64,000 nt of DNA from the IMG/VR virus record IMGVR_UViG_2737471993_000002. One strand, written 5' to 3'. Below the pieces are notes generated by a model. The model saw only the letters and a program-made list of their open reading frames with translations. It was not told the origin of the DNA and searched no databases. Positions 38,577-40,018 of this stretch are shown here, piece after piece; the first letter of the stretch is position 1, and each line of letters begins with the position of its first letter. Made by a program: the position numbers and the translations under genes. This DNA is from a virus (Duplodnaviria; Heunggongvirae; Uroviricota; Caudoviricetes).

Positions 38577-38592
38577 AAAGCAATGGGCAAGT

Positions 38593-39927
38593 TCATGCCA
38601 AATTATCCAGATTTCTTTTCTTTTTTTCAATTATATTTCTCGCGCCAGAAAAAATTTTACTCAAAATAATTGGTTTGCTTGCTCTATTATTAAGATGTAA
38701 CAACGCGCTATAAAATACATAGTTATCTATTTTACTATTTAAGGTATTCCCAAGCTTCCCGTTATATGTGCTATTAATAGTATTAAAATATACATGTTCA
38801 GGACCTATATTACAAATACCCCTATCAACTCGCTTTAAATAATGTTTAACTAAAGAAATAGCATCTTCCTTATCATTAATAACATAAAGTCCTGAGCGTT
38901 TACCTAGCTTGCTGTCCGAGAATAATTTATAACCAATAAGTTCATTTAACGTATTATCCACTTTTGTCAACTCTTTGTTGGCAATCTCCAGATAATACTC
39001 AATCTCTTTCTCCATATTACTTATTAAAGAGTTAAATTCTGCTCGTAACAAATCACCACCAGGTGATTTATAACTCCATAAAATTGAATTGGTAATACGT
39101 ACTACGTCAGATATTTCTGGTTTCTCTGAATAGTTTTTGTATCTAGTGCAAATAATGCTGTGCTTTATATATTCTCTAACTAATGATCGATAATCCCTTT
39201 CGAAAAGGTTTTTGACATCTAGTCTTCCATTGCTTGTTGTTATTAGGGTGGTGTTTAAAACTGGGTCGCCTTCAAAAAAATTATATTTATTTAGTAATCG
39301 TTTTAGCTTGTGTGAATTATGTGATGTTTCGCCATAATAATTTATCCCAAAAATAGCAATTATTAGCATAACATCAGGAGTGATGAAATGTCGTAATTGC
39401 TCGGCATAAACTTTTTTCTCTTCGATTTTCGAAGATGGAGAGTAAAAACCTTTGTCTATATATTCTAATATTGAAACAATATTACTAACATAACGTATAA
39501 AAACTTGATTCATTACAACGGAATCATAAACCTGATGCAAATAATCTACTCTCAAGTTGTTTTTTATTTTTTCCCCTGTACTAGATGATAACTCTTCTTT
39601 TACCTGCCCAAGTAGCTTTTCGTGGTGCTCCAGCAATGTTTTAAACCATTGTTCAAATGATGATTTTCTTGCCTCAGTTAATGAATCTGATGTTATCTGG
39701 ACAGCTTTCATAGCTGCTTTCGCACTTTTCTTTGCTTCATAAGCGTTCCATGCTGTAGCACAAAAAGCTGCCGCCGTGATGCAACTGGTAAAAATAGAAA
39801 TCCTATCTGCAACATTCAAGCTCCAGAACCAATCAGACGATGAAATCAAAACCACAGATATTACGGGAACAATGAAAATCAAAACAGGCATGTATGTACT
39901 CGCTCTAATAGTTATTAGTCGAGGCAA
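38593..39927 (-). CDS. AT-rich membrane-anchored protein of unknown function (candidate defence/exclusion gene)
   Basis: 444 aa with two N-terminal TM helices then a ~370-aa Lys/Asn/Tyr-rich soluble domain. Strongly AT-rich against the backbone; only minus-strand gene in this neighbourhood. Confidence 0.55.
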   Translation of the reverse strand: MPRLITIRASTYMPVLIFIVPVISVVLISSSDWFWSLNVADRISIFTSCITAAAFCATAWNAYEAKKSAKAAMKAVQITSDSLTEARKSSFEQWFKTLLEHHEKLLGQVKEELSSSTGEKIKNNLRVDYLHQVYDSVVMNQVFIRYVSNIVSILEYIDKGFYSPSSKIEEKKVYAEQLRHFITPDVMLIIAIFGINYYGETSHNSHKLKRLLNKYNFFEGDPVLNTTLITTSNGRLDVKNLFERDYRSLVREYIKHSIICTRYKNYSEKPEISDVVRITNSILWSYKSPGGDLLRAEFNSLISNMEKEIEYYLEIANKELTKVDNTLNELIGYKLFSDSKLGKRSGLYVINDKEDAISLVKHYLKRVDRGICNIGPEHVYFNTINSTYNGKLGNTLNSKIDNYVFYSALLHLNNRASKPIILSKIFSGARNIIEKKKRNLDNLA

Positions 39928-39988
39928 ATATTATATAAATCTCGTTATGATTTACAGACATGTATACGTATTGCTAATTATCACCAAC

Positions 39989-40018
39989 AAATGATAGGTG
40001 TGTACATATCTATCATTT
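39989..40018. promoter_or_regulatory. operator-like palindrome in a divergent intergenic region
   Basis: AAATGATAG-N12-CTATCATTT (9-bp arms) between the start of the minus-strand gene and the glutaredoxin-like gene. Confidence 0.35.

Follow-up and report, generated by a model that had tools for sequence, protein, structure and literature searches.

Background

AbiC (Prf) of Lactococcus lactis pTN20 and its homologues are single-gene abortive-infection (Abi) determinants of low guanine-plus-cytosine (GC) content that are carried on mobile elements (PMC13064643), and they are grouped as 'AbiC/P' with AbiP of L. lactis, likewise a single membrane-anchored protein. AbiC has two transmembrane (TM) helices and AbiP one (PMC13064643). 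In the presence of AbiC, production of the phage major capsid protein is lowered and DNA replication is unaffected, while AbiP, the only AbiC/P member with mechanistic data, requires both a membrane anchor and a nucleic-acid-binding domain, binds RNA in preference to single-stranded DNA, has a phage major tail protein as its trigger and blocks the early-to-late switch (PMC13064643). Here we analyse a gene that resembles these systems, located on the minus strand of a 64,000-nucleotide stretch of DNA (IMG/VR record IMGVR_UViG_2737471993_000002; hereafter, the window) that is part of an SSU5/pHCM2-like phage-plasmid of Escherichia coli. Judging from its sequence, the product, here called the AbiC-like protein, is a divergent member of the AbiC/AbiP superfamily and not a close AbiC homologue, and the gene is most likely anti-phage cargo of a known, mechanistically unsolved kind, not a new kind of system.

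The likeness to lactococcal AbiC extends to the overall layout, as both proteins have two N-terminal TM helices, the second of which runs into a long stalk, followed by a helical domain, and appear to share a three-helix core of about 60 residues. The two differ in length, the AbiC-like protein having 432 amino acids (aa) compared with 338–344 aa for the lactococcal AbiC homologues that we retrieved; in its extra variable C-terminal half of about 220 aa, where lactococcal AbiC has a much shorter tail; and in its host, a Gram-negative phage-plasmid. AbiP is much shorter than the AbiC-like protein but, by analogy, may serve as a working model for it. Enterobacterial proteins that match the Pfam family putAbiC (PF16872), found in Pectobacterium, Yersinia, Salmonella and Serratia, belong to the same length class (about 420–490 aa) and have the same architecture; they are 17–30% identical to the AbiC-like protein and keep the core consensus SpYMRvLYHlLK, where the latter has IRYVSNIVSILE. 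We know of no experimental characterisation of any of these enterobacterial relatives. Other temperate-element genes, such as those for lambda RexB and P22 SieB, encode membrane proteins that are expressed in the lysogen and abort or exclude other phages. Here the analogy is functional only, with no sequence or profile similarity to the AbiC-like protein detected, and RexB requires the partner RexA, whereas the cassette that holds the AbiC-like gene has no partner open reading frame (ORF).

Remote homology to AbiC and AbiP

The coding sequence and the parts of its predicted product are as follows.

38593 to 39891, minus strand: coding sequence of the AbiC/AbiP-like protein, 432 aa, with start codon ATG 39891 and stop codon 38593–38595; the reading from TTG 39927 (444 aa) is disfavoured
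39838 to 39888, minus strand: predicted TM helix 1, residues 2–18 (PVLIFIVPVISVVLISS), mean Kyte-Doolittle hydropathy 2.58
39742 to 39804, minus strand: predicted TM helix 2, residues 30–50, uncharged and small-residue-rich, running unbroken into the long stalk helix
39271 to 39507, minus strand: putAbiC core, residues 129–207, a three-helix segment with the PF16872 match at 132–207
38596 to 39261, minus strand: variable C-terminal half, residues 211–432, helical with a small three-strand sheet
38914 to 38997, minus strand: hypervariable patch, residues 299–326, with clustered differences from the pRM13322 allele

An initial annotation of the locus, made from the DNA alone, had placed a 444-aa protein on the minus strand. 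The ORF is there and spans 38593–39927, giving 444 aa if read from the TTG at 39927; its true start, however, is very probably the ATG at 39891, which yields 432 aa. This is indicated by the Prokaryotic Genome Annotation Pipeline (PGAP), which gives 432 aa (labelled 'hypothetical protein') in a plasmid with an identical locus, by the homologues, every one of which begins MPV..., by the diverged allele of comparison locus L003, which is without the TTG but keeps the sequence around the ATG, and by a perfect TATAAT (39935–39930) only 3 nt upstream of the TTG.

No motif had been recognised in the protein, yet against putAbiC, for which the gathering score is 22 bits, it gives a near-threshold match of 21.4–21.5 bits (E 3.4–3.6e-4) over residues 132–207 (144–219 of the 444-aa reading), and four of eight phage-plasmid alleles match PF16872 at E<=0.1. 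The AbiC-like protein also matches PHROG 18168 (function unknown) with an E-value of 1e-178. When 1.84 billion representative proteins were searched with a profile built from the eight phage-plasmid alleles, only 88 were retrieved, and all of those with a named source are from Enterobacterales. The same profile finds PF16872-annotated proteins at E-values of 1e-14 to 1e-21 (1.2e-21 for Pectobacterium P0039), and the distant Pectobacterium members are PF16872-positive and bear the name 'putative phage abortive infection protein'. Among 65 full-length relatives, 52 match putAbiC (best E 1.2e-13), nine match the PADLOC AbiC model (best E 1.3e-6) and six match PADLOC AbiP.

For the comparison with AbiC itself, a lactococcal AbiC-family protein from plasmid p275A (PADLOC AbiC, E 4.3e-133) was used as the seed and its homologues were aligned. 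Profile–profile alignment of the enterobacterial family with this lactococcal alignment, using hhalign, gave 74% probability and an E-value of 2.8e-5 over 60 columns, pairing residues 129–188 of the AbiC-like protein with AbiC 190–249; Y134, Y162, L166 and R167 are conserved with AbiC. In an AlphaFold2 (AF2) model of an AbiC homologue (predicted local distance difference test, pLDDT, 75), TM1, TM2 continuing into a long stalk, short helices and the three-helix core follow one another in the same order as in the model of the AbiC-like protein. The suggestion in the initial annotation that this is a membrane-anchored protein of the abortive-infection type thus gains support from homology (the putAbiC match, the PADLOC AbiC and AbiP matches of relatives, and the profile–profile match to AbiC). 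Its ranking of the gene as the strongest candidate for an undescribed function is not supported, as the protein belongs to a described family with an unsolved mechanism.

Affiliation with other effector families was considered as well. A SLATT 2TM effector domain was rejected, since a weak match to NCBIfam SLATT_1 (E 0.034) was obtained for one of the eight alleles and not for the AbiC-like protein. HEPN-type Abi proteins (Pfam Abi_C/AbiJ, AbiD/F) gave no Pfam or PADLOC match, and a conserved R...H (Rx4-6H) motif is absent; among polar residues, H90 and Y134 alone are nearly invariant in the family. The 'AbiC' matches in the SadR paper are to Pfam Abi_C, the HEPN domain of AbiJ, which is a family separate from putAbiC despite the name.

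Several points weigh against reading the gene as an AbiC/AbiP-type defence determinant. The match of the AbiC-like protein lies 0.5–0.6 bits under the putAbiC gathering score, and PADLOC returns no match for it even at E<=1; no direct match to AbiP was found. The link to AbiC covers only about 60 residues at moderate probability, and the profile of the narrow phage-plasmid subfamily, used alone, does not reach AbiC in hhalign. Residues H200, R201, K204 and N207, which are invariant in AbiC, correspond to V139, S140, E143 and D146 in the AbiC-like protein; likewise, the invariant G225, Q230, N242 and S243 are replaced by E, F, F and G, and several polar residues in the consensus of the wider family are missing from the phage-plasmid subfamily. 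Since the AbiC-invariant residues are not known to be functional, their loss speaks less against common ancestry than against a common mechanism. The ratio of nonsynonymous to synonymous substitution rates (dN/dS) of the gene, 0.4–0.5 in the comparisons described below, could reflect relaxed constraint. Membership in the family does not guarantee activity, as one lactococcal protein that resembles AbiC, at 38% identity, failed to confer resistance to the phages tested (PMC11381338). We found no experimental test of any Gram-negative family member.

Predicted membrane topology and structural model

The two N-terminal TM helices proposed in the initial annotation are evident from hydropathy, and both regions are helical in the AF2 model; residues 31–49 are uncharged and of moderate hydropathy (1.32, Kyte-Doolittle). 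The model, built on 65 relatives (pLDDT 91.2; predicted template modelling score, pTM, 0.80), consists of TM1, a 76-residue helix (27–102) that comprises TM2 and the stalk, and an all-helical domain with a small three-strand sheet (residues 321–380). An N-terminal membrane anchor followed by a helical extra-membrane domain, as seen in both hydropathy and the model, is the AbiC/AbiP type of architecture. Because a positive cluster, EAKKSAKAAMK, follows TM2, the C-terminal ~380 aa are predicted by the positive-inside rule to be cytoplasmic, and we infer an N-in/C-in hairpin with about 12 residues facing the periplasm. The composition is rich in Lys, Asn and Tyr, as previously noted (8.8%, 7.6% and 5.6%, respectively). 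No enzymatic motif or structural analogue of the AbiC-like protein was found.

An exchangeable cassette between tRNA genes and grxA

The gene occupies a slot that holds different genes in closely related plasmids. The cassette and its neighbours are listed below.

38580 to 40069: exchangeable cassette; homology with plasmids that have other occupants ends at about 38577–38579 and resumes at grxA (40070)
37840 to 38397, plus strand: neighbouring tRNA cluster (tRNA-Asn, -Tyr, -Thr and -Ser)
40070 to 40315, plus strand: grxA, neighbour of the AbiC-like gene
40527 to 41630, plus strand: tyrosine recombinase gene, beyond grxA

The flanks of the AbiC-like gene match Escherichia phages CMS-2020a and Cyrano, as well as 233 plasmids of ~108 kb, at 97–99% identity, and the backbones around the slot are about 98% identical between SSU5-like plasmids with different occupants. 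The left edge of the cassette lies just past a terminator-like hairpin (38553–38572), which marks it. In the plasmids compared, the equivalent tRNA-flanking locus held one of the following: this gene; family alleles 28–51% identical to it, always on the opposite strand (L003, L004, L014, L015 and L016); a Gp49 gene (PF13876) alone, on the plus strand like grxA (L001); and, in plasmid p2 of Klebsiella pneumoniae Kp1604 (L021; NZ_CP085480.1, 5789–6703), an unrelated minus-strand gene for a 304-aa protein with no family assignment. The divergent slot alleles are found in E. coli, Klebsiella and Enterobacter. Counts of plasmid records were as follows.

Left flank: 233 plasmid records, of which Escherichia 180
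AbiC-like family member: 132 plasmid records, of which Escherichia 67
SSU5-type Gp49: 485 plasmid records, of which Escherichia 113

The Escherichia counts (67 + 113 = 180), taken as totals only, are consistent with two largely alternative slot states. A total of 11 plasmids have the allele of the window; among 5,426 complete E. coli genomes it occurs in 6, in each case on a plasmid. When 50,697 phage records were searched by tblastn, no family member was detected at E<=1e-5, which is uninformative because only three of these records share the flank.

One copy of the allele, 99.8% identical, resides on the conjugative IncFII/IncI plasmid pEc631_2 (L006; NZ_CP040265.1, 6001–7564; 99.7–99.8%), where it adjoins IS66 genes, a recombinase, a DUF6530 gene and an AIPR-family gene. 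The copied segment corresponds to window positions 38400–39963; together with the gene it brought along some 190 bp of the phage-plasmid backbone and the TATAAT promoter-like site, without the palindrome that lies further upstream in the window, which is evidence of a recent transfer from the phage-plasmid to the conjugative plasmid as a self-contained unit. The cassette also appears to be a single-gene one, since no partner ORF or RNA was found in it (no credible small ORFs, and no Rfam matches except to the tRNAs).

At the cassette ends we found no att-like (attachment-site), target-site or flanking direct repeats, and because flanking direct repeats are missing, the cassette is probably exchanged via homologous recombination in the conserved flanks. 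The tyrosine recombinase next to the slot is a conserved backbone gene and is not the agent of cassette insertion. The initial idea of a cargo hotspot is supported by the variable slot within nearly identical flanks.

The genomic surroundings of distant relatives repeatedly include defence genes. In Serratia, the relative lies between genes for Thoeris ThsA/ThsB, AAA_15/21 ATPases and a reverse transcriptase, and in Yersinia it is found beside BrxC/D-like, DEAD helicase, TerB and ArdC genes. One Pectobacterium relative is at the edge of a relaxase-bearing mobile element and adjoins an N6-methyltransferase gene, with a second Pectobacterium site being less informative; the Salmonella relative is in an integrase-bounded island at mutS, adjoining a PIN gene, and a Pantoea plasmid relative adjoins genes for an AAA ATPase and a RES-domain protein. 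The SSU5-like plasmid p2 of K. pneumoniae Kp1604 has been reported to reduce the plating efficiency of lytic phages 10–100 fold (PMC8969562). We rejected this phenotype as evidence on the AbiC-like family because the gene in the slot of p2 is the unrelated one described above and the plasmid also carries a type I restriction-modification system and a DUF262 gene.

Rapid evolution of the gene

The AbiC-like gene evolves fast relative to its backbone neighbours. In comparisons with L007 (2–2.4% protein divergence) its dN/dS is 0.41–0.47, between the window and L006 it is 0.53 (three differences), and for the window or L006 against L002 the values are 1.19 and 2.39 (small counts), compared with 0.00–0.06 for grxA, the recombinase and the ligase in the same plasmid pairs. 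The differences from the 97%-identical allele of pRM13322 are strongly clustered, 13 of 21 amino acid replacements falling within the 28 residues 299–326 (binomial P = 4e-11), where the codon changes comprise 13 nonsynonymous and 3 synonymous ones; the patch could be due to positive selection or to a small gene-conversion event. Among the phage-plasmid alleles, the TM2-stalk is the best conserved part, with a mean pairwise identity of 61%, followed by the putAbiC core (44%) and the C-terminal half (32–33%), and the residues that are invariant among homologues are concentrated in TM2 and the stalk. A recombination breakpoint inside the gene, suggested by BLAST, in which the 5' 257 nt were common to the L003 allele, was rejected by windowed alignment with L003; this revealed a gradient from 62–77% nucleotide identity in the TM2-stalk to 35–55% beyond it, with a sharp break at the start of grxA.

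Proposed function and alternatives

Together, the sequence features, the remote homology, the hotspot with its allelic diversity, the raised dN/dS and the defence-island contexts of relatives point to a single-gene AbiC/AbiP-type defence moron of the SSU5/pHCM2-like phage-plasmid, which would protect the lysogen from other phages; we give this reading a probability of roughly 0.6. The gene would be transcribed independently in the lysogen and its product anchored in the inner membrane, the N-terminal two-helix hairpin tethering the all-helical cytoplasmic domain of about 380 aa. By analogy with AbiP and AbiC, the protein may stay idle at the membrane and become active only on encountering a phage product. 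The variable C-terminal half, including patch 299–326, could then be the specificity or sensor part that recognises a phage protein, and the effector step, a disruption of phage gene expression or replication, would fall to the conserved TM2-stalk and putAbiC core. The outcome would be abortive-infection-type protection of the lysogen and hence of the plasmid.

A bolder proposal, which we regard as unlikely, is that the tRNA-grxA slot is a dedicated allele-swapping immunity locus whose AbiC-like occupants, having diverged in the core residues from lactococcal AbiC, work by a different, membrane-centred mechanism: the patch at 299–326 would recognise a protein of a phage or of a rival phage-plasmid, and the TM2-stalk would oligomerise and damage the membrane. 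Also improbable, in our estimate, is superinfection exclusion, in which the protein would act at the inner membrane to block the entry of DNA or the establishment of phages or rival SSU5-like phage-plasmids without killing the cell, and the allelic diversity would stem from competition among related elements. A membrane-anchored product of a temperate element with a promoter of its own would suit such a role, as would the occurrence of the slot throughout the SSU5-like group, with many divergent alleles in near-identical backbones, and the variation of TM1 and the periplasmic loop between alleles. Yet only about 12 residues are predicted to be periplasmic and the bulk of the protein would be cytoplasmic, the Abi proteins to which it is homologous take effect once the DNA has entered the cell (PMC13064643), the chromosomal relatives reside in general defence islands and not only in phages, and neither PHROG nor Pfam gives a match to known superinfection-exclusion (Sie) or Imm families.

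The defence moron that we favour must also be weighed against readings without any role in immunity. The protein might be an accessory or lysogenic-conversion membrane protein, involved for example in envelope physiology or plasmid maintenance, that has only an ancient helical scaffold in common with AbiC; the remoteness of the AbiC link, with its lost polar residues, the lack of a detectable enzymatic motif or structural analogue and the ability of the slot to hold the unrelated 304-aa gene would all agree with this. We nonetheless find it rather improbable, as relatives repeatedly adjoin defence genes, the protein evolves fast and in patches while its full length is kept down to about 28% identity, and the gene is absent from most related plasmids and is therefore not needed for their maintenance. 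That the ORF is neutral or decaying cargo, hitch-hiking under relaxed constraint with no current function, seems very unlikely. Its dN/dS exceeds that of the backbone about ten-fold or more and reaches at least 1 in the two closest comparisons, those with L002 (on small counts), and the allele is rare; but the frame is intact in every copy examined, including alleles only 28–30% identical in which neither the length nor the order of domains has changed, invariant positions cluster in TM2 and the stalk, the AF2 model has high confidence (pLDDT 91), and an unrelated plasmid, a conjugative one, has recently acquired the gene.

Phage-plasmids of the SSU5/pHCM2-like type are widespread among E. coli, Shigella, Klebsiella, Enterobacter and Salmonella. 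Neither AbiC nor AbiP is named in the main text of a survey in which 1,227 SSU5-group contigs were analysed with DefenseFinder. The assignment proposed here fills an annotation gap, as it concerns a divergent AbiC/AbiP relative that is labelled hypothetical and is invisible to PADLOC. It is an incremental finding and not a new principle; its interest lies mainly in a tractable E. coli entry into AbiC/P biology and in an overlooked defence candidate on common phage-plasmids. The alleles form a natural series in near-isogenic backbones, and one pair that differs mainly in the 28-residue patch is suited to specificity-swap experiments. If the slot were indeed an allele-swapping immunity locus, it would offer an E. 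coli model to explain how AbiC/P-type proteins work, and about a quarter of the clinically common SSU5-like plasmids would carry an unannotated defence gene.

Base composition, putative regulatory sequences and neighbouring genes

As initially described, this is an AT-rich minus-strand gene within a plus-strand block, the genes upstream, the tRNAs, grxA and the tyrosine recombinase gene all being on the plus strand. The GC content of its coding sequence is 0.324, and 0.273 at third codon positions (GC3), compared with 0.459 for the window; only 1.5% of segments of equal length are as low in GC, and all the others come from one region at about 26.2–27.1 kb. There is a second strongly low-GC gene (26433–28136, plus strand; ~30–37% GC), whose 567-aa product matches the KAP family of P-loop NTPases at 24.8 bits (cut-off 20); to judge from sequence it is probably another accessory cargo gene, possibly a defence-related one. 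Another minus-strand gene inside the plus-strand block, at 31694–32890, encodes a 398-aa protein that was considered as a paralogue of the AbiC-like protein and rejected, being an unrelated Sel1-repeat protein (PF08238, E 1.5e-53).

The putative regulatory elements of the AbiC-like gene are the following.

39930 to 39962, minus strand: promoter-like site of the AbiC-like gene, with a perfect -10 TATAAT (39935–39930) and a weak -35 CTGTAA (39957–39952)
39985 to 40022: palindrome of 38 bp with a TGTACA centre and perfectly matching arms of 13 bp, CAACAAATGATAG-N12-CTATCATTTGTTG
38553 to 38572: GC-rich terminator-like hairpin, AAAGGGGC-TTCG-GCCCCTTT, between the converging tRNA operon and AbiC-like gene

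The TATAAT promoter-like site is kept in the pEc631_2 copy, the copied segment of which ends at 39963. The palindrome, first reported with 9-bp arms, is real and longer than described, with no match in 100 shuffles. It overlaps a further promoter-like site for the AbiC-like gene (-35 at 40006–40001, -10 at 39982–39977) and a divergent one for grxA (-35 at 40001–40006, -10 at 40023–40028) and is a candidate operator. No other allele is accompanied by it, L003 having just a degenerate version; a role as a backbone operator was rejected, as it is absent as such from L001, L003, L004 and L005. No other inverted repeats were found upstream of the other alleles, and elsewhere in the window the half-sites occur with two mismatches only, at about chance level. 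To our knowledge the palindrome has no convincing likeness to Fur, CRP, LexA or NrdR boxes. What was initially described as a bidirectional terminator shared with the tRNA operon is a terminator-like hairpin, with a clean U6 tract on the plus strand and only an interrupted U tract on the minus strand. A consensus terminator scan made no call at this site, and termination in both directions is no more than plausible.

Within the tRNA cluster, tRNA-Ser(TGA) (38311–38397) reaches 46.6 bits with the Rfam tRNA-Sec model, for which the cut-off is 47, and is called Ser by ARAGORN; the near-cut-off score is probably due merely to its long variable arm. Directly after it, in the conserved backbone, is a 20-bp inverted repeat (95% complementary, 38-nt loop) at 38400–38477. 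The stretch between grxA and the recombinase gene is variable as well. It is only 210 bp long in the window (40316–40526) and in other SSU5-like plasmids contains a hypothetical gene and a YafO-family toxin gene (L001, 4908–5936), a gene for a 184-aa hypothetical protein (L014) or fimbrial genes (L016). In the window it includes a 33-bp near-perfect palindrome, AATGATTCCATACCTA-C-TATGTATGGAATCATT, at 40396–40428, so that some 100 bp separate it from the tyrosine recombinase gene downstream. This palindrome gave three short BLAST matches in the pooled first five loci, with none listed for the individual loci at a stricter E-value; it may serve the recombinase as a target (resolution site) or act as an operator.

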